Position numbers and translations under genes: made by a program. A DNA stretch of 63,963 nt, counting the filler, from Octopus bimaculoides (lineage: Eukaryota): the NCBI RefSeq assembly GCF_001194135.2. It is 6 parts of 5 records of this genome, joined end to end, with 100 filler letters (N's around TTAATTAATTAA, not from the genome) between each part and the next. Parts side by side here need not be neighbours in the genome. Positions count along the whole stretch, not along the records: positions 1 to 17,776 come from NC_068989.1; positions 17,877 to 32,891 come from NC_068996.1; positions 32,992 to 53,028 come from NC_068983.1; 3 more parts are not named here. One strand, given 5' to 3'. The notes beneath the pieces are model-generated. The model was given only the letters and a program-made list of their open reading frames with translations. It made no database searches and had not been told where the DNA came from. Below are positions 3,726-48,832 of the stretch, piece after piece. The first letter of the stretch is position 1; the number at the start of each line of letters is the position of its first letter.

Positions 3726-5081
3726 TCATCATTCTTGACACAATCAAGGAGATCTCGTGCAACCAAAACTCGAGGACCTTCATGTATTTATTGCAGGACA
3801 CTGATGAGGTAAAGCACATGGTAGTCTAATGTTTCTACTAATGTTACATGATCATTTTAACATTTTATTGAAACACATGTACGTCCTAGAAAGTACTGAA
3901 TACCACACCAGTATTTTGCTTGTTATTGTTATACGTATTTACACACACACACACACACACACCTCTACACATACATTGAGTTTGTTTAATTCCTTGGTTT
4001 GCGTTTTGTTATGCTAAATATTGCAGGAAAAGAATCTCCAGAGAAATTTCTTAGACAATTTCTATTAACAAAAGCAAACACAAAAGACTGGAATTCTTTT
4101 GAGATGATTTTTTTTTGCTTGGGGATTCACAATGTAGTGCAATGTGTTGTTGTCAAGAACAAGACATCAATTATGGATTTGAACGATGATTTGACACAAG
4201 GGGATTACCTTTGTATGATTTTTTTTTTTTTTTGTTCTAACCACAAAATTTTATGTTTAACATTTATAATAAATTTGACACAGTATTTTCTTGACCAGAG
4301 TGTATATATTTATATGCCATGTTGAAATCTATGCTGATTGGCATAAACATTCTGCTGACTTAGTAAACAATGTTGTTATGAGTCAAACAACACCTTTCGT
4401 TGTATGTGTTTAACCTTTTTTGTTAGAATATTTCCGTTGACATATTCAGCTTTTGTTTCAAATGATTTAAGCATAAAATGAGGAATTTGATAAAATAATT
4501 TTGTTCTTATTAAGTTGTGCTAGGATCAAATTGACTTGAAACTTTGATCGAAGGTTTTGAGGTCATTTTAACTCTTTAAGTGCTGAGCACATTCTCTATA
4601 TAATCCTCCCAGCCTTGTTATAAACTAGAAATTTGTATGAAATGTAGGTGGTCTAGTATAAAAATCATGAGCATATAGCCATTGCATGAATTTTGATAGA
4701 ATTTTCTGATACAATAATCATTTTTGTATATTGAGAAGTGTTGTCATATCATTGTCAACTGCTGAGGTTGGTTAAAGAAAGTTCAGTTGATTAAATTTTG
4801 GTGTGTTCACATATGTTGACAAGAAGTTGTACAATACTCATTAGAAAAAGACATTGAGATCCGACATCTTCCTCTCTTTCAGTCAAAGAGTTTCTAAAGT
4901 CCAGCAAATAATTACCATTTACTCTGTGAAATAAGTATTTTCTCACAAACCCAGCAACATGCAGAGACATTGTATTGAAAATATATCAGTGAATTTATAA
5001 TACCGTTCTATATTTAAGGGATGAGGGATTATGTACATTATTTACAATTGACGGATATTTGTCCTCATCTTGTTTGTTGTT

Positions 5082-5127
5082 AACACAATGTTTCGGCTGA
5101 TATACCCTCCAGCCTTCATCAGGTGTC
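5082..5127 (-). ncRNA. Minimal type I hammerhead ribozyme motif with one stem III mismatch
   Basis: GACAC-CUGAUGA-A-GGCUG-GAGGGUAUAU-CAGCC-GAAAC-AUU-GUGUU. Stem I is GACAC/GUGUU, stem II is GGCUG/CAGCC, and both core boxes are intact. AUU replaces GUU, giving a C-A mismatch in stem III. Confidence 0.7.
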
Positions 5128-5176
5128 TTGGGGAAATTTCTAACCCCAAGATTCCAAGTTCGATTCCAGGCAGTGA

Positions 5177-5218
<42 letters not shown>

Positions 5219-5276
5219 TAATAATAACATCGAAAAATACCTTAGGAATGAGAACCCAGGTTTGAAATTTCCCCAA

Positions 5277-5319
5277 GACACCTAATGAAGGTTGGAGGGT
5301 ATATCAGCCAAAATGTGTT
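5277..5319 (+). ncRNA. Degenerate hammerhead motif, second arm
   Basis: GACAC-CUAAUGA-A-GGUUG...CAGCC-AAAAU-GUGUU. Both core boxes are mutated, so it is presumed inactive. Confidence 0.55.
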
Positions 5320-5700
5320 AACAACAAACAAGATGAGGACAAATATCCATCAATTGTAAATAATGTAAACAATGTACAGTAAATTTATGTTGTTTTTTTT
5401 ACCTTTAATCCTTACCATTCATTAGCAAAAAAGCATTGATGCAGTATCAAGTCTATTTCTGCTCAGAATCAATAAATCCTGATGCGAGGAAGCAAGTAAA
5501 AGATAAAAGATTACTGGCTCTTGTGAGCCACATTAGCAATTTATTGGCTGTAGTAAACCTTCAGGTAGAGCTGCTGCATGGTACACAGTAACCACTCACT
5601 CAGCTTCTTGATTTGTCAAGCTTCACATGTGCCAAACATGTTTGTAGAAAATGAAGCAACAATCGTTCTGGAATAAATTGATGTATATAACCAAAATCTA

Positions 5701-5920
5701 TTAACTCTTTTGCTACCAGATTTCTGTTAAAGTATGCAGCTTTTGTTTTAATTAATTTTGAAAATAATAAAGAATTTAGCATAATGACTGAGTGATTATT
5801 CAGCTGGAGTTTGGAACATAAATGAACATGAAAATTTCATGGACAGTTTTAATGGAGGTCACTTTAAAACCGGAAGTTTGTATCATAGAACCAGAGGCAG
5901 TCTCAGACTGGTCGGTGACA
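5701..5920. mobile_element. piggyBac-like non-autonomous element, decayed
   Basis: Starts TTAACTCTTTTGCTACC (TTAA plus piggyBac-like terminus) with an AT-rich non-coding interior. The opposite terminus is eroded. Confidence 0.4.
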
Positions 5921-6264
5921 TTACTGTAATTAGTCACTTAAAAGTATTTCTAATAAATATTTTCAAAATGAATCGATAAATATAACTTATAGTAAACATT
6001 TTCAGAAAGACAATAATGAAGATGGTGGTGATTGGAACGAGCATCAGGTATGGTATTTGGGAATAAATGAAAGTGTGTGTGTGTGTGTGTGTGTGAAGTC
6101 ATGTTTCCAGAAAAATTCTTCGTTTCCCTTCTTCTCTCTTCTTCTATTGATTTATGCCCTAATTGTCGGTGCCAACTTTGTCGCATAGAATCACAGTAAT
6201 TCAACCTCAGGTGTTTGCAATCAGGATATGTGTCTCACAGCATACAAACAAAATCACGACCATC

Positions 6265-6665
6265 ATAGGTGCAGGTAGAGTTGTGGGGTTAAGGAGATTC
6301 CATAGCAACCCCCTCTTTTGGGGTTCATTCCCACCACATGGCACTTTCAGCTGGTCTTTTCTGCTATAACCTCAAGCTAACCAATGCCTTGTGAGTGAAT
6401 TTGGTAGATGAAAATTTTACCGAAGCATGTTGTATGTAGATATATATTTATACATGTGTATGTGTGTGGTTCTGGTGTTTGCCACTTGACAACAGGTGTT
6501 AGTTTGTTTTCATCCACCATAACTTAGCTGTTGGGTGAAGGAGATGAATGGAATAAGCAACAAGCAGACTTTGAAAGAAAACGGTTCTGGGGTTTGACCA
6601 AGTAAACTGTTGAAGGTGGTTCCGCAGCTGCAGTTCAGTGTCTGAAAAACAAGTGAAAGAGAAGA
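6265..6665 (+). mobile_element. Composite SINE A (tRNA head + TA/TG microsatellite + tail), diverged
   Basis: Head resembles 60-222; tail (CATAACTTAGCTGTT...GAATAAG...GGTGGTTCC...CTGAAAAACAAG) resembles 55960-56150 in reverse. Confidence 0.65.
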
Positions 6666-7173
6666 CGTGAAAAGAAAGCATTTCCTAAGAATTCTGTTGA
6701 TACGATTGATAACATTGTTTCAATGAGAGAACTATTGAAAAAGAGATTAGAGCTAGATATATGTCACAAGTTAATACTAATACATCAAAGTTAAGAGTAT
6801 TATCAATAAGTAACATGATATTGTGGACGAAGGAAGTTAAGAAACAATGACTTTACTCACTAAACTAACCAACTGAATTAATTTCATTCTATCATTTCTT
6901 CAATGATTTCCATTCAGGAAAGAATAACAAAAAAAAATCCAACTTTTTTCTTGAATCAATCCATTGTTTTCTCAACATTTATCAATTATTCAATATTTCT
7001 CCAGAACTTTAGGTTTTCTTTCTTTCAAGAAAGAAAAAAACTTAAAGCAGAAATTTACCCAAACCACAGTTTGATAAGTCCAAAATATCACAAAAGGGAC
7101 GAATTCAGTATAAATACTTGTTTGTTTTTTTTTTGTGTAAGTGTATGTGCATGAGTTTGTGTGCGTGCGTGTG

Positions 7174-7269
<96 letters not shown>

Positions 7270-7302
7270 TGTGCATATGTATATCCATATGTTTATATAC
7301 AC

Positions 7303-8035
7303 ATATGGAGAGCTCCTACTTTTGCTGGCAATCTCAGAGTGAAAGGCAAATTGTTTGATGCCTCTGTGTGAACAGCTATGCTACATGGCAGTGAAACGTG
7401 GGCTGCGACAGCCAAGAACATATGTAGGCGTAAAAGAAATGAAGCCAGTATGCTTTGCTGGCTGTGCATGTTTGACAGTGTGTAAGCATCTTGAGAAAAA
7501 AGTTGTACATAGGAGGCATCAGATGAGGTATGCAAGAGAGAGACAACTATGCTGGTATGGTCATGTGATGCATATGGACAAGGACAGCAGTGTAATAAGT
7601 GCCAGTCTCTAACCATAGCAGGAGCCTGAGGTAGACCCAGGAAGACATAAGACAAGGTGGTGAAGCATGGTCTTCAACCCTTGGGCCTCACAGAGGCAAT
7701 GACAAGTGACTGAGACCTTTGGTGATATGCAGTGCTTGAGAAGACCCGTCAAGTGAAATTGTAGTCATGGCTGATGTTCGTGTCGCGGAACTGGCACCCA
7801 TGCCAGTGCCACGTAAAGTGCACTTGTACCAGTGATGCATAAATGCACCGATGCCAGTGGCACATAAATAGCACCCAGTCCACACTCTGTAAAGTGGTTG
7901 GCATTAGGAAGGGCACCCAGTTGTAGAAACCATGTTACAACAGTCAATTTGGAGTCTGGACAGTTATGGAGCTGGTCAGCTCCTGTCAAACTGTCGAACC
8001 CATGCCAGCATGGTAAATGGACATTAACTGATCAT
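7303..8035 (+). mobile_element. RTE LINE 3' end (thumb/C-terminus and 3' UTR)
   Basis: Frameshifted LRVKGKLFDA...MLHGSETWA... and LCWYGHVMHMD motifs, typical of the RTE C-terminal region. Ends CCCATGCCAGCATGG...TTAACTGATCATGAT. Confidence 0.8.
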
Positions 8036-9872
8036 GATTATCATGATTATCATGATTATAATTATTCTATTTTATAAAAAAAAAAATTAAAAAAAACAAA
8101 AACAAATGTAAGAAATAATACAATTCATTGATTTGTAATTTTACTTTGTATTTCTATGCTTCAAAATCAGAAGTCCTTTTCCAGGAAATATTTGGAAAAG
8201 CTAAAAGTACAAACCATCAACCAGTATAATTTCTTATAACTGACACTGACTTAATAAGAAAAAATAATGGTAAAAACATTTATATACATCAGAAAATTCT
8301 TCATGCAACATATACCACTCTAATATATATATATATATATACATATATATGTATATAGAGACAAATATATGAGTGCCTATTTTACTAGATTCATAGTTGA
8401 CTATCTATATATAGATGGTGTGTGTGTGTGTGTGTGTGTGTGTATAGTTTTGTATATGTAAGTATGCATGATGGAAAACAAGAGAATCAATGTGAAATAT
8501 TGTTTAGCGAAGGAAGCATAAATATATGACTGAACTAATGCATGTGGAGAACATTTGGAACAAATTGCAGCAACCAGTGAAGTGACATGGTGGCATGGCA
8601 CAGCAAGGAAGATAGGGAAGCAAACATTGATTCCTCGTGAGGTGGTGGTGCATGGTAGTGGGAAAGAACAAGCCATTATAAAGTTAATCATGTGGCCTCT
8701 TGAGCTGCCTTGGAGAGCAAAATAATGTGTAAAAGTTATTTTGAAAAATCATTTGAAACCTTTTTTTGTCAGTTAAGTGTAGACTGGACTTGGAGATGAA
8801 ACAAACTAAATTTTTGAAGCCTGGCAAAGATACTTTGAGAAATAATGGTAATAAATCAAAGTAGGAAGCCAGCAAATGTCCATGGGATTCTCACCATCAA
8901 TTGGATGGTAAAAAAAAAAACAGAGATGCGTCAGTGTTCTGTATAGTTCACTTACACACTCACACGTGCACACACACACACACACACTGCACATGCATAT
9001 TCACTTGAGTATGTTTATGCGTGTGTGTGTGTGTATGCATGTATGTATGTACAAGCATATTCCCTCACATGCAGACATACATACATACACACACACATAC
9101 ATATATATGGGTGTGTGTGTGTATAATATCTATATCTATCTTTCTCTTCCCCCCGCTCTCTCTCTCTCACTGATATATTGCTTTTCACTTTAGAAAAAAC
9201 TGGATATTTCAGTGAAGCACAATCGTGTGTTGGTGTTTGTGTATATTTTGCTTATACAGTTAGTTGTATAGTAATCCACATGAACAGTGAAGATGCAGAG
9301 GGGGAGGAGGAGAAGAAGAAGGAGGAATAAAGGAAAAAAATAGCAGACACAATATAACACCAATGCCACAGTTCTGTTGTTTTTGTGATTGTTGTTGTTG
9401 TTGTAGGAAATCTGTCTCTACTTTCTATATTGTCTGTGTGTCCAATCAAGTCATTATATTGTTAGGAGCAGTGATGTCCTTTAGTTGTTTGATCAAACGA
9501 TCAGACACTTCAGTTTAATGCACATTATTATTATTATCATTACTACCACTACTACGACTACTACTACTACATAAACACAGACACCTCTTATACGTTCTAT
9601 AATGTTCTGTAATGAGTAACATTTGAAACCAAACAAAATAACAAACGAAAACACAAACACACACAAAAAGGAAAAACCAACTAAAGAGAATAACTGATTA
9701 TGTAGTTTTTTTTTTTATGAGGAATGGCTGGTTTCATTGTCCAGCTCTTTGGTGACTTGACTTAATCCATAATAACTTCAAATACTATCGGTAACCATCT
9801 TGGTGGGTTTTGAAGTCCCCCACCGATGCATTATGAGTGGGATTTCATTGGTAGAAATTGTGCTGAAACCAC

Positions 9873-9934
<62 letters not shown>

Positions 9935-9949
9935 ATGTGTGTGCGTGTG

Positions 9950-11136: not shown

Positions 11137-11186
<50 letters not shown>

Positions 11187-13751
11187 ATATAGATATGTAG
11201 ATGTATAGATATATATGATGTTTTGAAAACATTTTTATTTCAAATATATTTACCTCGTCTGTCCAAGTCTTTTGTATTTGTCAACAAAGAGCATCAGAAA
11301 CATTCACATCACATGAATCACAAATAACAACATTTTTACCAAATAATAAAGCCTGCATGTAGAAATCGATATTACAATTTGTAAAATATATCTAATAATT
11401 CATTCATCACATTCTATAACAATGTGCCCTTCTGTCTGCAAGCTTCAGAACTACTGCTGCTGCTGTTTTTGTTGTTTTTGTTTTTGTTGGTTTTTGTTGT
11501 TTTTGATGACTTTTTTTATGTCATTGGAATAGCAACGGACAAGTGCAGGCATGTCAAACAAACAAAAACAGTTTCTGCAATCGATCTGATGATCAGAACG
11601 TATGTATAATTTCAATGCATGCACACACATACACAAACACACACACACGAATACACATAAATATATAAACATACAAATATGTATATGTATGTGTGTGTGT
11701 GTGTAGATATATGTAAATATGTGTGCGTATGTATGTGTTTATGTATATCAAGTAAATTGCTTTTACTAGATCTGCAGGTTCAATGTTTAGATTGACATTC
11801 CACTCCTATACTGATGTGACATTGGAATCATATTATTTCATGTGGAGGTAGGTTAGACTGTCAGGAATATGACTCCCATAATATTCGAATTATGACAGAA
11901 TCCAATTATTGGTATTTTGAATACATTTAATGATGCCCATCTTTCATGTGGTTACTTAATGAGTGGTTCCACAGTTATCCACTTTCTTCGGTTATTTTCT
12001 AACTTGGGATAATCAAGGCAAGTGGAGAACTGCGTAACAACATGTGCAACCACCTGAAACATGTATGTGTTATTCAATGGGTTTTTTTTTATGTAGAAAT
12101 AATTGGTTTTTGTTATTATTCAAACACACACACACACACACACACACACATTCATCTTGCAAGCATAGAATGACAGACAAAAGTGGTGTTGAGGGTAGTA
12201 CAAAAGGCCCAAACATAAACACTCAGGCATACTCATACAAACACATGTACCCATACACTGAGAGAGAGCTACACATTCACAAAACCTGTGTATAATATAT
12301 ATATATATATATATANNNNNNNNNNTGTGTGTGTGTGTGTATGTGTGTATACTTATTGAAGGACCCATGCTCTTTTATGGAACTCTGGGAATGTGGAAGG
12401 TATCCCCTTCTAAAGACCCAAGGTGACTCTTTCCAAAGCTACTCTCACGGTATTTAGTTTGAGTTGAGTTGGTTGTCAAACTGTTTCTGTGACTCTGAAG
12501 ATAGCCTGCAGGAGTCAGCAGTGTCAGTTGAAATTACTCTCGTCCTCATGTCACATGATTCTCTTCCAAGACACATTATTGCTCTGTTGAGCTTTCTGTT
12601 AGTCATAAATCCTTTTACTCTTAACTTCTTTCCTCAAATTCCTGCTTTCTGGAACTCACAACCATCGTCTTTGTTTCCTCTGCTCTGTGTTATTCAGTCC
12701 TTTCAAACATTCTGTCAATTGACAGTTTTTCAATCTATAGCCCCTTTCACTTCCTCGTTGGAGTCCCTTATGCTACAGTGGCCTGAAGCTTTGTTGAAGA
12801 CAAAATCATAACATGGCATGTTTTACAGACAAGGAAAATGGTAAAGTTAAGCTATTATGATCAAAGAATAACTATTCTAAGAACAGAGTATGCAAGACTT
12901 AATGATAAGGAGCCCCAGGATAAGTAGAAGTGAAGGTCAGTTGAAGAGAATAGGTGGAGAAAATATCAGATTAGTTAGTCGATAAATTAAAGAACTTATT
13001 AGTAATGGCAAACAAGACAATGTGTTTACAATTAGAGATCAACAGGGGTACCAGTTGATAAGATAGAAAGAAATTGATTGATGGAAAGTTGCAATATTGG
13101 CAAAACTAGTTTCAGAAAATGAAGAAAATGTCTTTCTCTGTGACCAATTCAGTGAGTTTTGGACATTGAAATGTGTGTGGATGGAAGGAGGTAGGTAGGA
13201 GATGAATAACACTTGAGGGGGTTAGGAAATTACAAAGTATCAAGTAAAAATGGGATTACACCTTCGATTGTGAAAACTGAAGGAATTTTAATGCTAATTG
13301 TATTCATGGGACCATTGTATGTGGAGAACAAGTAAAATTCTCACAAGATGGGAGAAACGTGCTATTTTAATTAGAAAATACCCAAGATGGGAGAAATGTC
13401 CAATTTCTGTGATCTTTATTACTTGTTTGAACTGATAAAACTCCTGAATCTATCAGGAAGATAGAAAGATCTTCACAACCTCACCTTCTGAATGGAGTGG
13501 TTGGTGCCACTTTCTTTTGGGATTGCTATCAGCATTATTAGCAGGACCTTAGATAAAACCTGTTCGAGATCCAAATACACAATAAGGCTGATGTTCACAG
13601 CTATGTTTCTAGAAAAAAAATTAAGGTTCAATTGCACTGTGCAGCATTTTGGAGGACAATTTTCTGCAATAGCCTCACATTGGTCAAAGCTTTAGGAGAG
13701 TAATTTAAGAGAAAACTGCCTGAAAGTTCATTGGAGGGATTAGTTTTGTTT

Positions 13752-17876: not shown

Positions 17877-18780
17877 GGGGTAGGGGTTGGGGGAATAGTG
17901 CGTATGAGTGAAGAGAGGAAGTGTGGGAGCATGGGCGGGAACAGGAGAACGGGCCGGTTGGGAGGTGGGGTTTGTGCGAGGTGTAGAGGTCGGACTGGAG
18001 TCGCCGGAAAGCTCGGGGAATGCCACGTTGGAGAGTCAAGGTGGAGGGGTGGTAGGTTAGGGAAAACACGAGACGGGCAACGGCGGGGCGGTTCGGAGAG
18101 AGGGAGAAGAGGCACGATCTACGGAACGTGCCCTGGCAAGGGCTGTGTGATTAGTGGTGCGGGGATATCCACGAAGGATGAAGTGGCAAGCCATGAGTTG
18201 AGATTGAGTCATGGTTGTCACTGCAGAGCCTGCTCAGACGGAGAAATTGGGAATAGGGGATGGAGAGCTTGGTGTGGGTAGGGTGAGAGGAGTAGAAATT
18301 AAGGTAGGAGTGTGAGTCGGTGTGTTGGTAGCGGATGGAGGTAGTGAGTGTGGAGTGGCGTATGTTGACAGAAATGTCGAGAAATGTGACGGAGAATTCG
18401 AGGGTTGGATGGAAGGATTGGACAAAAGAGAGGAAGGAGTCAGTTGTTCGTGGGAGAGTGAGGTCGAACCGATATAGTCTTCAATATAACGATCGTATTG
18501 TTCGGGAGTGGGACCAGTGAATCGTGAAAATATTTAGGCCTCAACGTAGCCAACGAACAGGTTCGCATAGTTGGGGCCCATGCACGTTTCCATGTCCATA
18601 CCCGAGACATGTTGGTAAAAATCCCCCGCAAACGAGAAGCAGTTGAGGAAGAGAACAAGTTCAGCCAAACGAAGAAGTGTGGAGGTATCAGGTTGGGGGT
18701 TGGGTCGAAGGTCCAGAAAGTGTTTACGTGCAAGAAGTCTTTCGTTGTGTGGAATCACCGTATATAGACTGGTTCGGGAG
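17877..18780 (-). mobile_element. Penelope-like element RT remnant
   Basis: Motifs SLYTVIPH, LLRLAELVLFLNCFSF, METCMGPNYANLFVGYVE, RYIED, HPTHTKLSIPYSQFLRLSRLCSD and LTYHP, typical of PLE RT. Frameshifted and truncated by a scaffold join. Confidence 0.85.
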
Positions 18781-19353
18781 TCCTAGAATTATGAAAAGTA
18801 TGGAATTACCACTTAGTCACAATTGTTCCATGGTCTGCTCTGACCCGGAATAGTAACACTTGTCAGTGATCCAGTTATGCGTTAACTAACATATGTATTG
18901 GCGTTCCATCTAAGAGTAGGGATACAGAAATACGTTTAGTTGCTGCCACGAAGTGCAATAAAACTCCCCTAGTTGTTATCCCAGGGTTCCTGTAGTTGTT
19001 ATCACAGCATCTTTCTAGAAGAAGGACACTCTGATAGAAAACCTGTTGTTTTACGTGATTATTGGTCTTGTCACTTTGGCCTGTTACTATAATCTATTGG
19101 TGTACAGACGTCTCTTTATGGTGACTTCATTTGACATTCTCTGTACTGAAAGTCTTGTGGCGATAAAAGAGTGGTGACGTGCGCAGACCTAACCAGTTGG
19201 AAGATTACAGTAAAATAGACCATTTGTCTGTCAACTGTGCTTCAAACTATGGAGATCTGCAACGGGACTGGATAGTCATCTAAGAGGTCATATATAGCAA
19301 GTCAGAAATGCCATTGACAACGATAAAGCACAAGATGATGGAGTAATCACTGC

Positions 19354-19651: not shown

Positions 19652-19699
<48 letters not shown>

Positions 19700-19702
<3 letters not shown>

Positions 19703-20262
19703 TTATTGTCTTTGCACAGCTTCTAACGCTGGGGATGTACTACGGTACCAGCTGTTCGCTACCAGTGAACTAAGGTAAGACCCTTTATTTTTCGAGCACC
19801 ACCCGGAGTATTCGTGCGGTTCTAAGCAGTGCTGTTTTCTGTAAGTGGTCCACCCTTATTGCAGCTCCTATTTGTTCCATGTACTTCTCAAGATTTTTAC
19901 TCACTGTTCCCAGGGCTCCGACAGTTATTGGTACTTCTGCTACCTTTTTCATCGACCACAACTGCTTAACCTTCCAACCCAACCTGTCATATCTATCGAC
20001 TTTTCTTTCTTCCTTATCGCATACCTTGTTGTCAGTTGGGCATGCTATATCTATGATCCAGCATCGTTTGCTTTCTTTCTCAATTTACACTGCGTCTGGT
20101 TTCCTATTCTCAATCTCATGGTCGCACTGAATCATAAAATCCCATAGGATCTTTGCATTATCATTTTGGATGATGTCTTCGGGTTTATGTTCGTACCATA
20201 TTTTTGCTCTGTCAAGTCCATACTTGTTGCAAAGTGTCCAATGGACAATCCTTGCTATATTG
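19700..20262 (-). mobile_element. R4/Dong-like LINE 3' end (REL endonuclease C-terminus) with (AAT)n tail at 19640-19700
   Basis: VPITVGALGTVSKNLEKYMEQIG...LQKTALLRTARILRVVLEK. Highly similar to 25180-25570. Confidence 0.85.
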
Positions 20263-21320
20263 TCTAGACCGGAAAGAGAAGGGGGAGCTTAAAAGCGAAC
20301 AAAAATACAGGGCACTGATATTGAAAGTAGTAATGGAGGAATTGAAACAGCGCCTCGTTGCAAAGAAAGCAAAGAAGGTAAGACACGACCAAATAATGAA
20401 GGGATACTAGTAGAATAGTTTATTCAGAGTAGATCAGAAGAAATTCTACAAAAATAATAAACGGATAGTGTACAGATGAAAAGTTGTTACCAGATAACAT
20501 TGAAAGTCAAAGGTTTTGGAGTGATATCTTGAGCAAAGACAAGGAGCACAAGAAGGATGCTGAATGGTTGCAAGAACTGAAACAAACAGACAGAACTAGT
20601 CATTTCAGTTAGGGAAGTGAAGGAAATCAGCAAAAAATGGGCAACTGGAAGGCCCCGGGACAAGATGGAGTTCAAGGCTACTGGATCTAAAGATTTGATG
20701 AATGTCATGCACGAATAGTTGCACAACTCAACACCTTGTTAAATGCCGACCAAGTTACACCAGAGGGTTGACTAATGTGCAGGACAGTGCTATGCTTGAA
20801 AAACATCGAAAAAGGCAATACGGTTAACAATTACAGGCCGATATCCTGCTTGCCACTTATGTGGGAATTATTGATTGGAATAGTCACAGAGTCAATGTAC
20901 GCACATCTGGTAAAAAATGGAGTCCTGCCACATGAGCAGAAGGGTTGCAAGCGTAAGTGCAGAGGTATCAAGAATCATCTCCTGGTAGACAAAACTGTAC
21001 TTAGAGACTGCAAGAGGAGGAAAACTAACAGCCATGTCATGGATCGGTTATCGTAATGCGTACGATATGATGTATGAACCTATTTGGTATTGCATTCAAT
21101 GTTGAGCGATTGCTTGGAAAAGTATGGTGAAGTGGGGGACAGAACTGGCAGCATATGGAAAAAGTTTAGGGACAACAGAAATCAAGAGAGGCATCTTCCA
21201 AGGAGACTGCCTGTCTCCACTGATCTTTGTACTGTGCATGATACCACTAACACTGATTCTGAGGAAAGAAAAGGCTGAGTATTTATTCAAAAGCCGCCAA
21301 CAAAAAGTCAACCACTATAA
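20263..21320 (+). mobile_element. R4/Dong-like LINE N-terminal/RT portion, inverted relative to the adjacent 3' end
   Basis: EELKQRLVAK..., [19 protein letters not shown] and EIKRGIFQGDCLSPLIFVLCM...QQKVNH. Reverse-complement similar to 26490-27298. Confidence 0.85.
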
Positions 21321-22150
21321 TGGATTGACACTTGTAACTCTACTGTTACTTATTTGTATTTTATTCACCTATCTCCGAATCTGCCATTCGTAAATTATGT
21401 CTGCATAGCTCAAGAGTGAATTTCTTTACTCAGCTGGGTCTAATTGTCTACATATACTGCATGAATATCATTCGTTCAGAACTTCTGTACCAAGTTTGAT
21501 ATTTACATAATATTGTTGCGTATGTATATTATTCTGACCTAACGAATTTAAGTACCTAATTCAACTGAACCTTACTTTTATATATATATATANNNNNNNN
21601 NNNNNNNNNNNNNNNNNNNNNNNNNNNNNNNNNNNNNNNNNNNNNNNNNNNNNNNNNNNNNNNNNNNNNNNNNNNNNNNNNNNNNNNNNNNNNNNNNNNN
21701 NNNNNNNNNNNNNNNNNNNNNNNNNNNNNNNNNNNNNNNNNNNNNNNNNNNNNNNNNNNNNNNNNNNNNNNNNNNNNNNNNNNNNNNNNNNNNNNNNNNN
21801 NNNNNNNNNNNNNNNNNNNNNNNNNNNNNNNNNNNNNNNNNNNNNNNNNNNNNNNNNNNNNNNNNNNNNNNNNNNNNNNNNNNNNNNNNNNNNNNNNNNN
21901 NNNNNNNNNNNNNNNNNNNNNNNNNNNNNNNNNNNNNNNNNNNNNNNNNNNNNNNNNNNNNNNNNNNNNNNNNNNNNNNNNNNNNNNNNNNNNNNNNNNN
22001 NNNNNNNNNNNNNNNNNNNNNNNNNNNNNNNNNNNNNNNNNNNNNNNNNNNNNNNNNNNNNNNNNNNNNNNNNNNNNNNNNNNNNNNNNNNNNNNNNNNN
22101 NNNNNNNNNNNNNNNNNNNNNNNNNNNNNNNNNNNNNNNNNNNNNNNNNN

Positions 22151-24309: not shown

Positions 24310-25140
24310 AGTGAGAGGGCAGTGCATGCCATCAAAGTGACACTGGGGTGAAATATATGAAGCCCAATATACCCATCATGACTACCCATCTGATGAAGAT
24401 ACACCAGGCACATGCATCACAACCATATGTGCGCGACATGGTGATCACATATCAAAATAAACAGCACATGACCTTGCAGTGTGGCCCAGTTAAACTTTTC
24501 TTCAGGGCGCCATAATTTCTCTACCTGTGTGTATTGGCATATCCCAGAGTATGGTTACTTTCTCATTTTCTGTGACCTTTACTTGCGTGTGCCCATACCA
24601 TCTTTTTTCTGTTGATATTCCATAGTGTTAGCATAGCTTCCAATATATATAAGGTTCCAACTCTGTCGTGTCTGTGAATATATTCCTGTGAATATATTCG
24701 AAGGTTGGATAACCAGAGACAGTATGATTTATTGTTTCTTGTCCATCACCACATATTCTGCAGTTACTTGTTATATTTCTCGTCATTATGTGTTTGTAGT
24801 GATTCCTAGAGGGAAGGCTTTGATCTTGTGCTGCAAATAAAAATCCTTCGGTCTCTGCTTTGAGTCCTGGGCTTTTCAGCCATTGTTGGGATTTTACTTT
24901 GTCTATTTCTTTTCTGTTTAGTTTAACCCAGTATTTGCTATGAAGTGGGGGGGGGGGGCTTTTCTTGCCATCTTTTATTATAACCCATTGCTGTTTTAGT
25001 TTTAGTTTGGATTTCAGTTGTTTTTCAGATTTTATTGTTTCTTCTTTTTCGTCATAGTTGTTAGGTACTATGATTTTTTTTTTGTATTTGTCAGCTTCCT
25101 TAAAGATTGAAAACAGTTTTTTGTTTTGTTCGTGTTTTGT
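24310..25140 (-). mobile_element. R4/Dong-like fragments: 3' UTR-type end (24310-24520) plus zinc-knuckle region of a second family
   Basis: KSQQWLKSPGLKAETEGFLFAAQDQSLPSRNH...CRICGDGQETINHTVSG (CCHC region). The end CACTTTGATGGCATGCACTGC..TCTCACTC(AAT)n is shared with 27327 and 39972. Confidence 0.75.
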
Positions 25141-25179
25141 GGTTATTTGTATTATTATTACTATTATTATTATCATTGT

Positions 25180-27298
25180 TGCCTTTGCACAGCTTCTAAC
25201 GCTGGAGATGTACTACAGTGTCAGCTGTTCACTACCAGTGAACTAAGGTAGCTCCTCTTATTTTTTGAGCACCTTCCGGAGTATTCCAGAGGTTCCAAGC
25301 AGTGCTGTCTTCTGCAAGTGCTCCACCCTTATTGCAGCCCCTATTGTCCCACGTACTTCTCGAGATTTTTGCTCACTGATCCTAGGGTTCCGACAATTAT
25401 TGTTATTACTGCTACCTTTTTCATCGACCACAACTGCTTAACTTCCCCAGTTAACCTGTCACATCTCTCAAACTTTCTTCCTTATCGCATAGTTTGTTGT
25501 CAATTTTTTGCCCTGTCAAGTCCATACTTGTTGCAAAGTGTCCAATGGACAAGCCTGGCTATATTGTTGTGGCGTCTCTTATATTCCTTCTGGGCTAGTG
25601 GCGTACATTGGCTGGTAATATGTCATACGGTTTCACCGTTTTGTCTACAGATTCTGCACTTATCACTTTTTGATGTGTTGTCTATTCTGTATTTTATGTA
25701 GTTTGTTCTTAGTACTTGCTCTTGGGCAGCACAGATTAGAGCCTCCGATTCCAGTTTTAAATCTCTTTTAATCATCCACAGACATTTTTCTTCTCTGCCT
25801 GTCTTATATTCAACATCCCTATGAAATTGACCATGCATTCTTTTCTTTACCCACCTATTTTCAGTTTCATTCATTTTCAATTTCTTGTATAGTGCTTTAT
25901 CTTTGCAATTATTCATCCTACACAAGCCTGACCTTCCTAATTCTAATAATAGCGGTTCTGTGGCATTTTTTACATATCATGCTATGTTGTTTTCTTCTAC
26001 TCTAATGCTGTGTTTGCATCCAATAAGTCCACTTCCCCCTCTTTTTCTTGGTACATACAGTCTGTCTGTGTCACTGTTTGGGTGGAGTGACCCATATCTA
26101 GTTAGCAACTTCCTTGTCTTTCTGTCTAAGCTGTTTAATTCGTCTACTATCCATGCGATTACCCCTGCTCCATTTCTAAGGAGTGAAACCGCCCAGGTGT
26201 TGATAGTTTCGATCTTATTCCATCCGTTTAATTTCGATTTAAGGATCGGTCTCAGTCTGCGCAAGTACTCCACCTTAAATTTTTCTGTCATTTCTTTCTC
26301 CATTAATTTATCCACTTCCAAAATCCCCAAGCACTTATTGCCCGTCTCTTCTATCTGCTTCATAACCTCCCCCGACGGTATCGTTAGTCCGTCCATACAT
26401 TTGATTTTGCCTCTCTTCAATACCAATACACCACACTTTCTCAGTTCGAACTCCATTCTGATATCAGCACTGAAGGTATACACCGTATCAAATGGTTGAC
26501 TTTTTGTTGGCAGCTTTTGAATAAATACCCAGCTTTTGCTTTCCTCAGAATTAGTGTCAGTGGCATCAAGCACAGTACAAAGATCAGTGAGGACAGGCAG
26601 TCTCCTTGGAAGATGCCCCTCCTAATTTCTACTGTCCCTAAACTTTTTCCGTATGCTGCCAATTCCGTCCTCCAATTCACCATCCTTTTTTCAAGCAATC
26701 ACTCAACATTCGATGCAATCTCAAACAGGTTCATGCACTCCATAATCCAAGAATGTGGGACACCTTACAATAGTCGATTCATGACATGGCTAAGTTACTT
26801 TTCCCCCTCTTGCAGTGTCTGAGTACAGTATTATCTATCAGGAGTTGATCCTTGGTACCTCTGCACTTACACTTGCAACCCTTCTGCTCATGCAGCAGGA
26901 CTTCAATTTTTCGCAGATGTTCGTACATTGACTCTTACGAGTATTCCAGTCAATAACTTCCACATAAGTGGCAAACAGGATATCGGCCTGTAGTTGTCTA
27001 CCGTATTGCCTTTTTCGATGTTTTCAGGCACAGCACTGTCCTACTGTCAACCACTCTGGTGTTGCTTGATCAGCATTTAACAAGGTTGCACAGCTATTCG
27101 TGCATGACATTCACCAAATCTTTTGATCCAGTTGCCTTGAACTCCATCTGGTACCGGGGCCTTCCAGTTGCTCATCTTTTTGCTGATTTCCTTCATTTCC
27201 CTAATCGAAATGACTAGTTCTGCCTGTTTTGGACAGACTACTGTTTGTTTCAGTTCTTGTAACCATTCAGCATCCTTCTTGTACTCCTTGTCTTTTCC
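25180..27298 (-). mobile_element. 5'-truncated, frameshifted R4/Dong-like LINE (RT + CCHC + REL)
   Basis: KMSNWKAPVPDGVQG, RRGIFQGDCLSSLIF, IRMEFELRKCGVL, KCLGILE, LYVPRKRGGSGL, ALICAAQEQVLRTNY, KCRICRQNGETV, and a C-terminal LQKTALLGTSGILRKVL-type motif. (AAT)n at both ends. Confidence 0.9.
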
Positions 27299-27326
27299 TT
27301 TATTATTATTATTATTATTATTATTG

Positions 27327-27600
27327 AGTGCGAGAGCAGTGCATGCCATCAAAGTGANNNNNNNNNNCTTCCAATCAATTAAGATCAGAAGCCATGAGAG
27401 CCACTGCCTGGCACTGCATCCGGGCCTTAGATAAACAGCGCATGACCTCGTAGGTGGGGCCCAGTTAGAATTTTCTTCTGTTCGAATGGCCCATCCCGTT
27501 CAAAAGGTCCCTGAATAAGGTTTGTTTAAGGATGTTGAGCAAAACACCCATGTTTCCAAAGGTGAATTATTCAAACCCCAACGAATTCCTCTCATTATTC
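27327..27600 (-). mobile_element. R4-like 3' UTR-type end with (AAT)n tail
   Basis: Same terminal motif as 24310 and 39972; flanked by (TAT)n on both sides. Confidence 0.6.
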
Positions 27601-34460: not shown

Positions 34461-35310
34461 TAAAGGGTGATATTATTTAGTAAACAATAATATGGGAAGA
34501 CGATGGTTGATACACAGTAGGATGGAATGTCGGAGTCGTAATCAGTGTGTAAGGATCGGTTCTTCGTTGATAGCCATTATGTAAAGATGAAAGAACTGTG
34601 GTTGAAGTTGTAAAGAAAATATTTGTTTACCGTTACATCGAATATACCTTGCCTCGACGGGCAGGTGAATAAAATCCTAGAGCGTGCGAAGTAAAAAAAA
34701 TAATTAATTTCGGCCTGTGTGTTCGTATTGAAGTAGTAAACCATAGAGAGAGATGTGGTAATGTGTAGCGATGACCAAGTGAGTTAGTGAAAGTTGGAGG
34801 GTGTGGGAGGTTGGGTGTCATAGCTGCTGAGAGTAAATTTTCATTTCTCCATTTGACCATTGTCTTAGAGTAGCTACCTTGCTTTGGATCATGATTCTAG
34901 CGTTCTGCTCCCTAACTGATGGTAGCTGTCTCTCACTCGAGTTTATCATTCATTAACTATCTGATTGAGTTGTCACGAGCCGACTAACTCAGTTGTCATC
35001 AAGTCACTAACTGATTTTTGCTTGGGGTTCTTGCTTTTATAACTATCCAGAAGGATAGACATATCATTGAGAACAATAGATTTAGTTGGTGGTACTTGTT
35101 ATCTTAATTCTAACTTTTGGTGAAATAGAAGAGATTAGAAAGGTCAAAAGGTGGAGACATTATTTCGGCATAGCTGAGGCAATCTGGCAAATGTAAAACT
35201 GCTGTCACAGAAAAACTATTGTTCCACCGTGAGAAAAGTTCTGTTGAAGTGTTAATTTAAATTTGGCTATGGTGGATCGAATCCACTTCATGCCTGCAAG
35301 ATTCACTACA
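34461..35310 (-). mobile_element. Short, probably internally deleted member of a Tx1/L1-like family, flanked by microsatellites
   Basis: The 5' about 300 bp matches 48833-49130 and 59480-59778. The 5' end abuts (TATG)n and the 3' end CCCTTTA abuts (CA)n. Confidence 0.5.
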
Positions 35311-35799: not shown

Positions 35800-35945
35800 A
35801 TATTTATTTAGTAGTGTCGAGGAGTTTTGTTTTAATAATGTGCAATGCCTCTTTTAGACATAACTTACAGGCTAAGCGTTGACCTTGGTATAGAAGCCCT
35901 GAATCTATTATGAACCATGACAAAAATGTAAGGAATATTTCTATT
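35800..35945 (-). mobile_element. Probable PLE GIY-YIG endonuclease C-terminal remnant
   Basis: SWFIIDSGLLYQGQRLACKLCLKEALHIIK resembles the W-x-I-I...C-x-LCL-x-E-x-L-x-I motif of PLE endonucleases. Cut by a gap. Confidence 0.55.
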
Positions 35946-39971: not shown

Positions 39972-40320
39972 TTGAGTGAGAGAGTACTGCATGCCATCAA
40001 AGTGACACTGGGGTAAAATATACGAAACACCAACGTTTCCACAGGTGAATTATCCAAACCCCAAAGAATTCCTCTCAACACATGGCTATGATGCTCCCCC
40101 ACTACTTCTGCTCATGATCAGAGATGCACATATCGTCAGCCACCAAGGGACATGCTCAACTGGTTAAGATCAAACAACTGACAAGCAAATCTGTGGTATT
40201 AAGCAGAATATTTACTGTAGCCCATCCTTTTATACGAAGACAAAGCAATGTACACGATAACACTTCCTACAGTTAAGATGAGAAGCTATGAAAGCCACTG
40301 TCTGATACTGCATCAGGGCA
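39972..40320 (-). mobile_element. R4-like 3' UTR-type end with (AAT)n tail
   Basis: GAGTGAGAGAGTACTGCATGCCATCAAAGTGACACTGGGG, shared with 24310 and 27327. Confidence 0.65.
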
Positions 40321-40380
40321 TTTATTATTATTGTTATCATTATTATTGTTATTATTATTATTGTTGTTGTTGTTATTCTG

Positions 40381-41015
40381 AATGACACTCGTATAGTTCT
40401 TAATAACCGGCTGTTCTTTACTTGAAAGCAGACAATAGCAAATCACCAAAGGTTTCAAGTAGTGCCTTCTCCTGTGACTCAAAGAGACAATACTCTCCTT
40501 AGAATGCGAGCTGTACCTAACAATGCCGTCTTCTGGATTACCTCGGGCCTGAAAGCAGCTCCAATATTCTTGGAAACTACTCCTAATGCTCTAATTACCA
40601 CCGGTATCACCACTACTTTCCTCATGCCCCATAACTTTCCTATACCGCAGTGGCTGGTATTTCTCAATCTTTTCTGTTTCCTTACATTTCGCCCTCGAAT
40701 CACCTGGTATTGCAACGTCTGTTATCTTTGCTTCTTTTTCATCGTTATGGATGAGCACGATATCTAGTCGTCTCGCCTCTATGACTTGGTTGCACTGCAT
40801 GCTAAAATACCAGAGTATTTTGTTATGTTCGTTTTCCATTGCTCCCTCTAGCTTGTGTTCATAACATTGTTCGGCTCTCTCGACGTTTGCTTTACCGAAC
40901 AACAGCCAGTGGATATATCTGGCCGCATTGTCGTGTCTCCTTTTGTATTCGCTTTGTGCGAGCTTACAGCACTAACAATATAATATGGCTTATACTTTCT
41001 CCCTTCTCAGAGCAC
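40381..41015 (-). mobile_element. R4/Dong-like LINE 3' end (REL domain)
   Basis: WYEHK-like region, KILWYFSMQCNQVIEARRLDIVLI...ITDVAIPGD...EKIEKYQ and IPVVIRALG...QKTALLGTARILRRVL. Tail (AAC/AAT)n at 40321-40380. Confidence 0.85.
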
Positions 41016-42916: not shown

Positions 42917-42954
<38 letters not shown>

Positions 42955-43600: not shown

Positions 43601-43978
43601 TGCCTTGATAATCAATAATGTTAATAGGCCAATATGTTTTTTGTACGTACTTGATGTGTGTGTCATGCTTAAGAGAAAGGAACTGTTGAAAGAAATTTTG
43701 TTGCTTAAATAAAAATTTTTAGCTAGATCTCTTGTAATGTCTGGAAGAGATTTGAGACCACCAACCAATGTGTTGTATTACTACTACTCAATACCCATGC
43801 CTACTATTCAATCGAAGCATTGAATATCTTAATGCAAAAATTAAGATACTTAAATTTGACGCTTGTGTCGAGCAAGGGAGAGAGGAAGTGAGAAAAAAAG
43901 AGAAAGAGTGAGAGGGAGTGGCTGAATTCCTTTGAATTCCTTTCTACGATTGAACCCTCCTGGCTATTAAAGGCCTAA

Positions 43979-44022
<44 letters not shown>

Positions 44023-44502
44023 NNNNNNNNNNNNNNNNNNNNNNNNNACACACATTTGTTTTAGGTCTTCTACCCATTTGAGTTCGGCCACACACCAGAT
44101 AAGATGTTAAGTCTTATATGCCGAAATTTAAATTTTGAATTTGTTTTAATTATAAAATTACACCTCAGCTAAAGAACATCTTTTGGCTTTCGAATACGAC
44201 CTTTTCTTTCTCTTTCTATATTTTTGTTAAGTTACAATTTCTCTGTTTTTGGTCAAGATTTTTCTAGTTTCTTTTTTCTTGTATCAAGTAATGGAAGAAA
44301 GCATTAAAAAAAATTAAATTCATAGAGCCGAACAAAATCAAAAATATTAATTCTATTTTTGCCCTTTCCTTAATACTAACAAGAGCATAATATGAGAGAC
44401 ATTTGGCTGTTATTTCTAGCAAATTGAACAACCACACGGAATTGTTCGATTGGCTCATTTGTTGATATGTATAAGTAAGCAAAAACTAAAAGACATACAC
44501 AG

Positions 44503-44546
<44 letters not shown>

Positions 44547-44559
44547 GAATGTGTCTGTG

Positions 44560-44750
44560 TTTGTACCCCCACCACCATTGCTTGACAACTGATGTTCGTG
44601 AGTTTGCGTCCCTGTAACTTAGTTGTTCAGCAGAAGAGACTGATAGAAGAAGCACCAGGCTTAGAGGGAATAAGTTCAGGGGTCAATTTTTTCGACTACA
44701 GGGTGGTGCTCTAGCATGGCCACCGTCAAAGGACTGAAAGAAATAAAAGA
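44560..44750 (+). mobile_element. SINE A tail segment
   Basis: GTAACTTAGTTGTTCAGC...GGTGGTGCTCTAGCATGGCC...CTGAAAG. Confidence 0.7.
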
Positions 44751-44934
44751 ATACGAGAAAAATATTCCGTACCACTAAACCAAGAGGGTTCTCTGAATAT
44801 GTACGATGTATTTTAAGGCTAAATAGTAATTCTGTTTACGTTTGCGTAACTGAGATATTTTAGTTGGATTATATAGTTATCGGTTTTACACTTCTTTCTA
44901 TATTCTGTAACTGTCGCAAGTCCTGAAATTTGGC

Positions 44935-45430
44935 ACTAGTCCTGAAATAGGCACAAGTCCTGAAATTTGGGGTGGAGGCAGTCACGTCCCCGAAAGGATG
45001 AGAGGCAAAGTACATCTCGGCAGAATTTGAACTCAGAACGTAAAGACATACGAAATACAGATAAGTATTTCACCCGGCGTGCTAACGGTTCTGCCAGCAT
45101 GCCGCCTTTAACTGTCACAATATAGAAACATTTCTCATCGCACCAGCACACAATTTACAGATGCTTACATTTTTTATAATTTCCGTGAATTTTTCACGGG
45201 TCTAGCTAATAATAATAATAATAATAATTGTTTTTTCTATTACTGGCACAAGGCCTGAAATTTGGGGAATAGTCAATTACATTGACCCTAGTGTTTCACT
45301 GGTATTTAATTTATCGACCCCAAAAAGATGAAAGGCAAACTCGACCTTGCCGGAATTTGAACTCAGAATTTAAAACGAACAAATGCCGCTAAGCATCTTG
45401 CCCGGTATGCTAATGATTCTGCCAGCTCGC
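44935..45430 (-). mobile_element. Two SINE family B copies (44935-45100 and 45240-45430)
   Basis: Shared family B motifs; (AAT)n between the copies. Confidence 0.7.
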
Positions 45431-45983
45431 AGCCTTATATAGCGCCCAAGGTTCATTTTTAGGACCAAATAATCCATCATATTTCAGCAGCACCTGTATT
45501 TATCTGAGATATCTTTCGTTAGGCATCAAGACTGGAGTGTCTTTCAAATATTGTAATAAATTTTTTTTTATATATTTAGTATCAGATAAAGTTGTATAAA
45601 AAAAAGATTTTTGGTAATAAATTAAATAAAAAGATTTTTTGGCACTAATGGGTTAACATCTGATGTTCTTAATACAATATTCGTAACTTATCCAGGAACA
45701 TCCAGTGCTTTTGTTGTGGTATGAGTCGTTTTATTGTGAATCAGTAACTTTCAGAGTTTAGTTTTTAATCTGACAAAATGGCTGCTACTCAATAGTGTCA
45801 CTTGTGTGAGAAAGCTTTTTATACTGAACTTGAATACAGTCAAAGTTCAATGCCACAACTATGTGCTTCTTTCCTTGATAGACAGCCATTCTATTCCAAT
45901 GAGTGTCATATCCTGCAACATTCCAAAGACGAAATATTAGCGAAGAGATAGCTCTATTCAAACGCTTATTATCATGATTATAT

Positions 45984-46190
45984 ATACGAGGGAGTGCGTA
46001 AAAGTTCCCGGCTTTGAGGAAAAGAAATACAGGGCGATCAGTTAATTATGATTTTATTTGATATATGCTCCTCTCAAATTTACACACTTATTGAAGAGGT
46101 CCTTCAATTTATCTGAGAACTCGGAAGATTGGGGCTCCAGCCAGGCCTTTCGCGATACCATTAAATCCAGGAACATTTCAGCACCTCCTC
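45984..46190 (-). mobile_element. mariner 3' end with terminal inverted repeat
   Basis: TA-CGAGGGAGTGCGTAAAAGTTCC terminus; minus strand WLEPQS...DLFNKCVNLRGAYIK resembles the mariner C-terminus. Confidence 0.7.
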
Positions 46191-46196
46191 CTATAT

Positions 46197-46253
<57 letters not shown>

Positions 46254-47233
46254 NNNNNNNNNNNNNNNNNNNNNNNNNNNNNNNNNNNNNNNNNNNNNNN
46301 NNNNNNNNNNNNNNNNNNNNNNNNNNNNNNNNNNNNNNNNNNNNNNNNNNNNNNNNNNNNNNNNNNNNNNNNNNNNNNNNNNNNNNNNNNNNNNNNNNNN
46401 NNNNNNNNNNNNNNNNNNNNNNNNNNNNNNNNNNNNNNNNNNNNNNNNNNNNNNNNNNNNNNNNNNNNNNNNNNNNNNNNNNNNNNNNNNNNNNNNNNNN
46501 NNNNNNNNNNNNNNNNNNNNNNNNNNNNNNNNNNNNNNNNNNNNNNNNNNNNNNNNNNNNNNNNNNNNNNNNNNNNNNNNNNNNNNNNNNNNNNNNNNNN
46601 NNNNNNNNNNNNNNNNNNNNNNNNNNNNNNNNNNNNNNNNNNNNNNNNNNNNNNNNNNNNNNNNNNNNNNNNNNNNNNNNNNNNNTGTGTGTGTGTGTGT
46701 GTGTTTGCGTGTGTGAGCTAGTTTGTCTTTGTGTCTCTATTTGTTCACCACCATTGCCTGACAACTATTTTTGGTTTGTTTCTGTATACAAAACATAGCA
46801 ACCAGTTCGGCCATAGTACCCGATAAAACAAATACCAAACTTGAAAATGAAAAGATAAACTGAAGGTCGATGCCGTCGAGTTAAACCCGTCAAGGCAATG
46901 TCCCAGCATGACCGCTATCCAATGACTGAAAAAAGTAACAGTTACAAAATAAACACTAAAAACAGAAGACCCTTTATACTACTGCCAGATATTCTGTCGT
47001 AAATGTTATATTTAATAAGTGAGTTTGTGAAGCGATAATGATGAGTTGGTATATAACTTCTTTTGGCGGTTCTTTTTTGTGTTGAAAAATATTATAGAAA
47101 TAGTTTTGGCTACCAATTATAATTCATCAAGTCTTCATTATAATACTTGGAATCTAAAACTCTGGAATAGATCAGATTAAAGAATTTTTCCATATCTTCT
47201 ATTTCTTCATAGCTGTACAAACACACACACACG

Positions 47234-47295
<62 letters not shown>

Positions 47296-47781
47296 NNNNN
47301 NNNNNNNNNNNNNNNNNNNNNNNNNNNNNNNNNNNNNNNNNNNNNNNNNNNNNNNNNNNNNNNNNNNNNNNNNNNNNNNNNNNNNNNNNNNNNNNNNNNN
47401 NNNNNNNNNNNNNNNNNNNNNNNNNNNNNNNNNNNNNNNNNNNNNNNNNNNNNNNNNNNNNNNNNNNNNNNNNNNNNNNNNNNNNNNNNNNNNNNNNNNN
47501 NNNNNNNNNNNNNNNNNNNNNNNNNNNNNNNNNNNNNNNNNNNNNNNNNNNNNNNNNNNNNNNNNNNNNNNNNNNNNNNNNNNNNNNNNNNNNNNNNNNN
47601 NNNNNNNNNNNNNNNNNNNNNNNNNNNNNNNNNNNNNNNNNNNNNNNNNNNNNNNNNNNNNNNNNNNNNNNNNNNNNNNNNNNNNNNNNNNNNNNNNNNN
47701 NNNNNNNNNNNNNNNNNNNNNNNNNNNNNNNNNNNNNNNNNNNNNNNNNNNNNNNNNNNNNNNNNNNNNNNNNNNNNNNNN

Positions 47782-47831
<50 letters not shown>

Positions 47832-48448
47832 GTATATACAAACATATACATAGATATATATATACATATATATCTACATGTACATATATATATTCATATA
47901 CACGTGTGCGCACACACACATACACACATACACACACGCGAGCACGCATACATACACACACATACACACACGTACACACACACACACACACACACATACC
48001 ACCATCACCACCACCACTGGAACATACAGCGTGAAGCAATTTGATGCAAGAACACATCCGCATATAATCCCTTGTTTAGTCAGAAAACTCTCAGGGCAAC
48101 CATTGCGTAATGACGTATTAAATGTCAAGCCATCATGAAAATCCGATGTTATTAATTCATACGTGTTTATATACTTACTGCATACATTTACTGTTAACCT
48201 TGAACGTGATTATCTATTTAAAGATTATTGTTGTTCCATAGCCTTCTGTTGTATCTACGGTAGTGGAAATATTATCCATACTCTGCTTCGGTTTAATATG
48301 AAACTCCAGTGTAACTCCGGCAAAATTCCATCACAGTACCTTTTACTTACTACAGTCATTAGACTGCAGCCATGCTAGGGCACCACCTTGAGGAATTTTT
48401 AGCTGAATATATAGACCGCAGTATATATATACATACATACATGCATAC

Positions 48449-48492
<44 letters not shown>

Positions 48493-48515
48493 TGGGACAA
48501 TTATTCGGTAGCCAT

Positions 48516-48576
48516 GATAAAACTCCGAGTTTCGGATGCCGGGGCGGAAACCCACGCCGCCATCTCTTCAGTTATC
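48516..48576 (-). ncRNA. Type I hammerhead ribozyme motif with intact core
   Basis: GAUAA-CUGAAGA-GAUG-GCGGCGUGGGUUUCCGCCCCGG-CAUC-C-GAAAC-UCGGA-GUU-UUAUC. Stem I is GAUAA/UUAUC, stem III is ACUC/GAGU, and the predicted cleavage triplet is GUU. Confidence 0.75.
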
Positions 48577-48610
48577 TGGCCATCGAAGAATGCTATGAAA
48601 ATGATGGCCA

Positions 48611-48671
48611 GATAGCTGAAGAGATGGCGGCGTGGGTTTCCACCCCGGCATCCAAAACTCGGAGTTTTATC
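48611..48671 (+). ncRNA. Hammerhead motif, second arm, with G12A (GAAA to AAAA)
   Basis: GAUAG-CUGAAGA...CAUCC-AAAAC-UCGGA-GUU-UUAUC. G12 is catalytically essential, so it is presumed inactive. Confidence 0.65.
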
Positions 48672-48832
48672 ATGGCTGCCGAATAATTGTCACATATTAT
48701 TTACAGATAAATTCCTCTATTTACATAATATTGAGGTCTCTTTCTTTTGTTGTCTTACCTTTTCTATCAATATATATATGTATGTATGTATGTATGCATA
48801 TATGTATGTATGAATGTATGTATGTATGTATA

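Follow-up and report, generated by a model that had tools for sequence, protein, structure and literature searches.

An inverted 5'-truncated copy, a 30-40-bp tail and hammerhead ribozymes (HHRs) carried in pseudo-long terminal repeats (pLTRs) are standard for Penelope-like elements (PLEs), according to the parts of PMC8557442 that treat their structure. Head-to-head inverted pLTRs with a tail and an 8-10-bp target-site duplication (TSD) are also described in PMC3846280, in which self-priming was proposed, and pairs of minimal HHRs (min-HHRs) lying 100-700 bp apart on opposite strands were ascribed in 2014 to probable truncated PLEs (PMC4209133), a single min-HHR motif giving no cleavage in that report. 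Penelope-13_HM, listed in the supplement of PMC8557442, has HHRs on both strands via an inverted copy. Non-LTR (long terminal repeat) retrozymes (PMC7229834; bioRxiv 10.64898/2026.07.22.740005) are similarly short and non-coding, carry a type I hammerhead and are likely mobilized by PLEs, but these sources describe them as tandem units arranged head to tail, whose hammerheads lie on the same strand and release circular RNA. Here we analyze two hammerhead-bearing elements, A (4999-5376) and B (48484 to about 48769), in a 63,963-nucleotide stretch of Octopus bimaculoides DNA (GCF_001194135.2) made up of six parts of five records and referred to below as the window. With a probability of roughly 0.82, we regard A and B as truncated PLE ends that each carry an inverted copy, and the outward-facing hammerhead pair in each is most likely the already described inverted pLTR layout rather than a new RNA system.

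Both elements resemble the truncated insertions of endonuclease-bearing (EN+) PLEs (PMC8557442; PMC3846280) in possessing a head-to-head, shorter inverted copy, a one-sided 3' tail (in B a longer, tail-like extension), a terminal-repeat hammerhead and an AT-rich or microsatellite target, and A also has a TSD near 10 bp. They differ from the published examples in being shortened to the point where no open reading frame (ORF) remains, and the B extension exceeds 30-40 bp (the A tail measures 35 bp). An earlier note on this DNA had instead proposed one retrozyme-like family with a shared double-hammerhead design, and that proposal is not sustained because the two hammerheads of each element lie on opposite strands, the ribozymes are of different types, and the palindrome seen in B is not the family unit. 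We consider it likely that A and B are two independent 5'-truncated insertions of hammerhead-bearing 3' ends (pLTRs) from two different PLE families.

Animal-type in character and rich in AT, the window contains many microsatellites and assembly gaps as well as decayed copies of long interspersed nuclear element (LINE), mariner-like and other repeats. Here, a descriptor scan covering both strands returned two type I hammerheads with a perfect core, compared with none in 30 of 30 dinucleotide block shuffles, and allowing one core mismatch gave four matches against a shuffle mean of 0.3. Both intact-core ribozymes are on the minus strand, with C3 at 5122 in A and at 48571 in B, and for each an inverted partner facing outward lies on the plus strand (C3 at 5282 and 48616, respectively). 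This agrees with the note's description of type I hammerheads that face outward, in which stem I has 5 bp and the cleavage triplet is NUU. Its statement that A and B have no evident sequence in common beyond the catalytic cores also holds, the best blastn match between them being 10 nt (E 0.13). Rfam searches gave zero hammerhead or tRNA matches in the whole window, A or B, and reported only hairpin and microsatellite artefacts. A weak hammerhead-like match at 11261 (minus strand) was rejected because it falls inside the shuffle rate.

Element A is flanked by two plus-strand copies of a 12-bp TSD (4987..4998 and 5377..5388) that are identical at 11 of 12 positions, with one mismatch; 7 of 2000 random segment pairs match equally well. 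Immediately inside the left copy is a 35-bp one-sided 3' extension of the inverted arm, the tail (4999..5033, minus strand), whose outer edge is fixed by the TSD and which the other arm lacks. It is followed by a short, inverted, 5'-truncated arm (5034..5139, minus strand), delimited by the descriptor scan and an arm walk, that contains a minimal type I hammerhead. In this intact ribozyme stem I is formed by 5127-5123 and 5086-5082, C3 and G12 are at 5122 and 5094, and the predicted cut is at 5087/5086; the arm begins 17 nt upstream of this C3. Of the two arms, that on the plus strand is longer. Its ribozyme-bearing part (5265..5376, C3 at 5282), located by arm alignment, continues upstream through a unique segment (5140..5264, plus strand) comprising a 37-nt linker, an (AAT)n run (5181-5227) and a B-box-like decamer (5158-5167). 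Four substitutions, two of them at CpG, and one 3-nt gap distinguish the arms in the alignment. On the plus arm G5 is changed to A at 5284, G12 is changed to A at 5310 (a CpG), and 3 nt are gone at stem III and the cut site, so that the loss of G12 noted earlier for this copy is accompanied by the loss of G5 and of the cut-site nucleotides. This dead hammerhead escapes the descriptor scan even when two core mismatches are permitted. At the inversion junction (5127-5149) a 7-bp stem, CTTGGGG ... CCCCAAG, lies either side of the join, and on sequence grounds it may be a mark of fold-back priming.

The longer arm of element B (48484..48604, minus strand; identified by the descriptor scan, and including an 18-nt 'spacer') carries the intact hammerhead, with C3 at 48571, G12 at 48533 and a predicted cut at 48521/48520, and its outer end adjoins a (GATA)n run. 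The short inverted arm (48603..48703, plus strand) begins 13 nt upstream of C3 (48616), has G12 changed to A at 48654 and has its predicted cut at 48666/48667; together the arms form a near-perfect 220-bp palindrome. They overlap by 2 nt at the junction (48603-48604). Beyond the short arm is a one-sided, tail-like 3' extension of about 55-65 nt (48704..48769, plus strand, end approximate) that is shared by the family, as judged from read depth to 48745 and from loose ends resembling 48745-48769, and a TA-rich microsatellite comes next. Element B is therefore located where the note placed it, at 48.5-48.7 kb, but it reaches beyond 48699 to at least 48745. In both elements the inverted arm starts (5139 in A, 48603 in B) 13-17 nt upstream of the hammerhead core.

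The two ribozymes are of unlike type, that of A being minimal and that of B having a stem III of the Hydra-clade type. The A ribozyme has a 5-bp stem I, a 6-bp stem II, an unpaired A on the 5' side of stem II and no helix III, thereby resembling the min-HHRs of metazoan PLEs, for which the corresponding section of PMC4209133 gives a 5-bp helix I, a 6-bp helix II, an unpaired A between positions 9 and 10.1 and no helix III. It departs from them in that the intact arm is non-palindromic at 15.2-16.2, reading ACAT at stem III, one transition short of a palindrome; B is not minimal. In the B ribozyme stem II is long and interrupted, with an extra C on its 3' side, and stem III is a 4-bp palindrome enclosing 1 nt. 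This ribozyme shares the CUGAAGAG core, a U at the cut site and a TA-rich insertion site with the Hydra-clade PLE hammerheads (PMC8557442, File S2), and its stem III, ACTC-G-GAGT (a 4-bp palindrome with a 1-nt loop), is that of Hydra-2_aMil and Penelope-16_HM in the supplement of the same paper. Stems I and II of B, unlike stem III, match no family listed in the part of that supplement compared, and the clade of B is judged here from the ribozyme, a protein being needed to assign it. Thus, the minimal palindromic stem III that had been described for both elements exists in B but is not a real helix in A, and the extra nucleotide beside stem II is present in both but on different sides.

Family-level evidence for B comes from four public runs (of 24 listed), which were aligned to 48490-48745 at 80% likeness. 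B is a high-copy family, present in two organisms, because the two DNA runs place 4128 and 4673 contigs on it and the two RNA runs 506 and 566 reads. At 48604, 37 and 48 contigs together with 55 and 45 reads diverge into a common parent sequence and do not turn into the inverted arm, and summed depth in the junction bin is 778 and 923 compared with 7252 and 3995 immediately before it, contig depth being a rough measure and the B copy in the window differing from the family in the spacer. Because B copies leave at 48604 into this common parent and depth drops there, the spacer belongs to the parent, the longer arm is the one on the minus strand, and the palindrome is not the unit of the family. 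The idea that most family-B copies start at the edge of stem I was not adopted: summed DNA depth falls about tenfold over 48571-48597, but RNA reads fall only about twofold, and the window copy diverges from the family in this interval. At the other end, it is only beyond the plus arm that family sequence carries on, reaching at least 48745 and probably about 48769, with other copies stopping near 48710 in TA repeats. The upstream parent motif of B has no second occurrence in the window.

In each element, then, a longer arm is joined to a shorter inverted one, and a 3' extension is present on the shorter arm only. Published PLE biology suggests how such a structure would arise. The GIY-YIG endonuclease would nick AT-rich or microsatellite DNA, and reverse transcription would begin at two neighbouring positions in the 3' part of the RNA, leaving the tail; synthesis would halt early, and a second, inverted cDNA would be joined by fold-back priming or template switching. 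With one hammerhead per pLTR, the outward-facing pair would be a by-product of this process, and the inserted copies would then decay, chiefly at CpG, with loss of G12. Integration by PLE enzymes, as the earlier note had supposed, is well supported by the tail, the TSD, the head-to-head inversion and the PLE-type hammerheads. Several points weigh against this account. No parent ORF was reached for either A or B, and as a consequence their membership of the PLEs is read from layout and ribozyme type. The B extension, at about 55-65 nt, is longer than a canonical tail, and a TSD of B is unreadable between the microsatellites. Family-level evidence covers B alone. Moreover, the variety of B junctions is read from 15 joints, with 37 more outside those listed, and some of the varied junctions may be later deletions at palindrome centres. 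Finally, the RNA and DNA runs compared below come from different samples.

The coincidence that the right-hand copy has lost G12 in both elements, to which the note had drawn attention, is real at the level of the base, G12 reading A at 5310 and at 48654, but the right-hand copies are structurally unlike arms. In A the short tailed arm is the left one and in B it is the right one; the arm that has lost G12 is hence the long arm of A and the short arm of B. Each loss is a G-to-A change at a CpG. At 48654, G accounts for 52% and 44% of summed contig depth in the family and is the base in 100 of 119 and 119 of 129 RNA reads; copies bearing A align preferentially to the B copy of the window. In addition, C>T and G>A changes together account for 29 of the 55 and 28 of the 49 variable places in family-B DNA. 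Because CpG decay on structurally opposite arms accounts for it, the coincidence needs no design, and we reject a shared G12 loss as a design feature.

The elements are each predicted to fold as one long hairpin (z -25 and -23). A transcript crossing A or B would form a single hairpin of about 100 bp that is predicted to bury the sense hammerhead in read-through RNA and would likely be edited by ADAR; on this folding model both loci are likely to be catalytically silent. In family B, A>G changes account for 25 of the 106 and 26 of the 114 variable places in RNA, compared with 6 of 55 and 6 of 49 in the DNA runs. At seven sites picked from the 40 variable places listed (98 others lie beyond these), G is found at 5-30% in RNA and at no more than 0.53% in pooled DNA. 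The A-to-G sites are 48510, 48619, 48620, 48669 and 48683-48686, and they include A6 of the hammerhead core (48619), which is changed in 7 of 40 and 10 of 38 RNA reads. Strand bias is unlike between the two RNA runs. These changes are likely to reflect A-to-I (adenosine-to-inosine) editing of fold-back double-stranded repeat RNA, a process documented both for palindromic repeats and for a lizard Penelope (PMC5625713). RNA ends at the predicted cut sites, which the note had suggested looking for, were not found: neither of the two ordinary RNA-seq runs (506 and 566 reads) has a pile-up of starts or ends at any place, the B cut sites included. The test is weak, since about 6% of each run was read and such libraries are ill suited to detecting self-cleaved or circular RNA. 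For an active PLE, too, a lack of RNA end pile-up is reported (PMC11167929).

Among other explanations, the one that survives best is that A, perhaps together with B, is a genuine non-autonomous element, a short RNA mobilized in trans by a PLE enzyme, with the inversion still made at integration. In A this RNA would comprise a Pol III head of tRNA origin, (AAT)n and the hammerhead-bearing 3' end of a PLE. The B-box-like decamer and (AAT)n upstream of the A hammerhead and the great abundance of B are consistent with this idea, and non-autonomous PLE derivatives have been published (PMC8557442; bioRxiv 10.64898/2026.07.22.740005). No tRNA is detected in A by ARAGORN or Rfam, however, and A has no A box, only the B-box-like decamer (the A copy being 5'-truncated); the B-box pattern itself occurs five times across the window compared with 1.9 expected. 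Furthermore, the upstream piece of A could be an old remnant of a short interspersed nuclear element (SINE) inside a parental 3' untranslated region, and B copies run upstream into a longer parent. We therefore judge this explanation unlikely. Slightly less probable again is a SINE-like origin confined to A, and we would give equally little weight to the specific version in which family A is a tRNA-headed SINE with a borrowed PLE hammerhead 3' end, that is, a Penelope-partnered SINE, whose ribozymes the host silences through ADAR, with editing of the fold-back hairpins that extends to core A6. Narrow literature searches found no description of a SINE with a PLE end.

Much further down in probability is a fixed palindromic unit, MITE-like (a miniature inverted-repeat transposable element) or a self-replicating hairpin, that spreads as such. 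That B is a near-perfect palindrome within a high-copy family speaks for it. The 48603-48604 junction is rare, however, and other junctions differ, at least 7 head-to-head junctions lying at other places among the 15 joints listed, each in 1-2 contigs per run; B family sequence extends past one arm only, and A is asymmetric with its 12-bp TSD. B as a MITE with fixed terminal inverted repeats is largely refuted, its structure not being constant across copies. Equally improbable is a single retrozyme-like system in which two hammerheads process an RNA unit that is circularized and reinserted: each element does have two PLE-type hammerheads, and PLE remnants occur in the window, but no single RNA carries both hammerheads in sense because they are on opposite strands, so the pair cannot excise a unit, whereas retrozymes are same-strand tandem repeats (PMC7229834); moreover a long hairpin is predicted, the RNA runs have no start or end pile-up, and the ribozymes are of different types with one arm dead in each element.

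Two protein-coding remnants of PLEs were reported in the window by the note, and the reverse transcriptase (RT) fragment is real. It lies at 17947..18806 on the minus strand, is decayed by a frameshift and stops, has 44 homologues, and is 60% and 42% identical over two frames to the full RT+GIY-YIG protein P0010 (E 4e-63, tblastn). It is closest to proteins of the kind of P0010 and P0012, which carry RT and C-terminal GIY-YIG domains (Pfam), with a Neptune-type Zn linker recognized by eye. The second remnant is probably, on its sequence, a C-terminal piece of a Hydra-type GIY-YIG endonuclease (35804..35944, minus strand), broken by an assembly gap. It is a post-hoc motif match that 0 of 100 shuffles reproduce, the motif having been fitted with the sequence already known, and by eye it resembles the published alignment of Hydra-clade endonucleases; neither Pfam, Atlas nor tblastn gave a match, and phmmer returned one unrelated repeat protein. 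The RT and endonuclease pieces seem to come from different clades. Both are at least 12 kb from A and B, and no link to either element is seen.

Other features of the window are recorded as observations in their own right. A coding piece with a PAN domain (2574-2759, minus strand; Pfam PAN_1, E 2e-7) lies 2.2 kb from A and is probably a host exon, without a homologue among longer proteins. An unclassified repeat of about 310 bp is present in four copies that are 76-89% alike (48827-49137, 35004-35310, 59455-59782 and 59116-59190). Three copies begin at a TA-rich microsatellite, one being situated after the B tail and one downstream of the endonuclease remnant, and no hammerhead was found within the repeat. 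Decayed non-LTR retrotransposon pieces, one of which has 453 homologues, stand beside (AAT)n runs at 19669-21393, 24628-27499 and 40273-40971; we take these to be R4/Dong-like. An 87-aa frame at 54644-54907 (minus strand) resembles, by its motif, the C-terminus of a mariner transposase. Exact-motif scans of public collections gave 3 metagenome matches and 0 and 2 prokaryote genome matches, each of 21-25 nt, which we dismiss as chance, and in viral contigs there were 0 exact-motif matches and no PLE locus. Three short A and B motifs had no match in the text of the PMC8557442 supplement, in which line breaks could hide one.

Many Penelope families have been counted in one octopus (PMC13282606), and A and B may already be in the repeat library of that study. 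Family B is a very high-copy repeat whose Hydra-type hammerhead matches none of the families listed in the part of the PMC8557442 supplement compared. If A were a SINE with a PLE end, a new partner class would be added. The position of the arm starts, 13-17 nt upstream of the core, is a possible clue to what PLE hammerheads do. Moreover, the editing-type changes at core A6 in family-B RNA suggest a concrete way in which host cells may neutralize PLE ribozymes.

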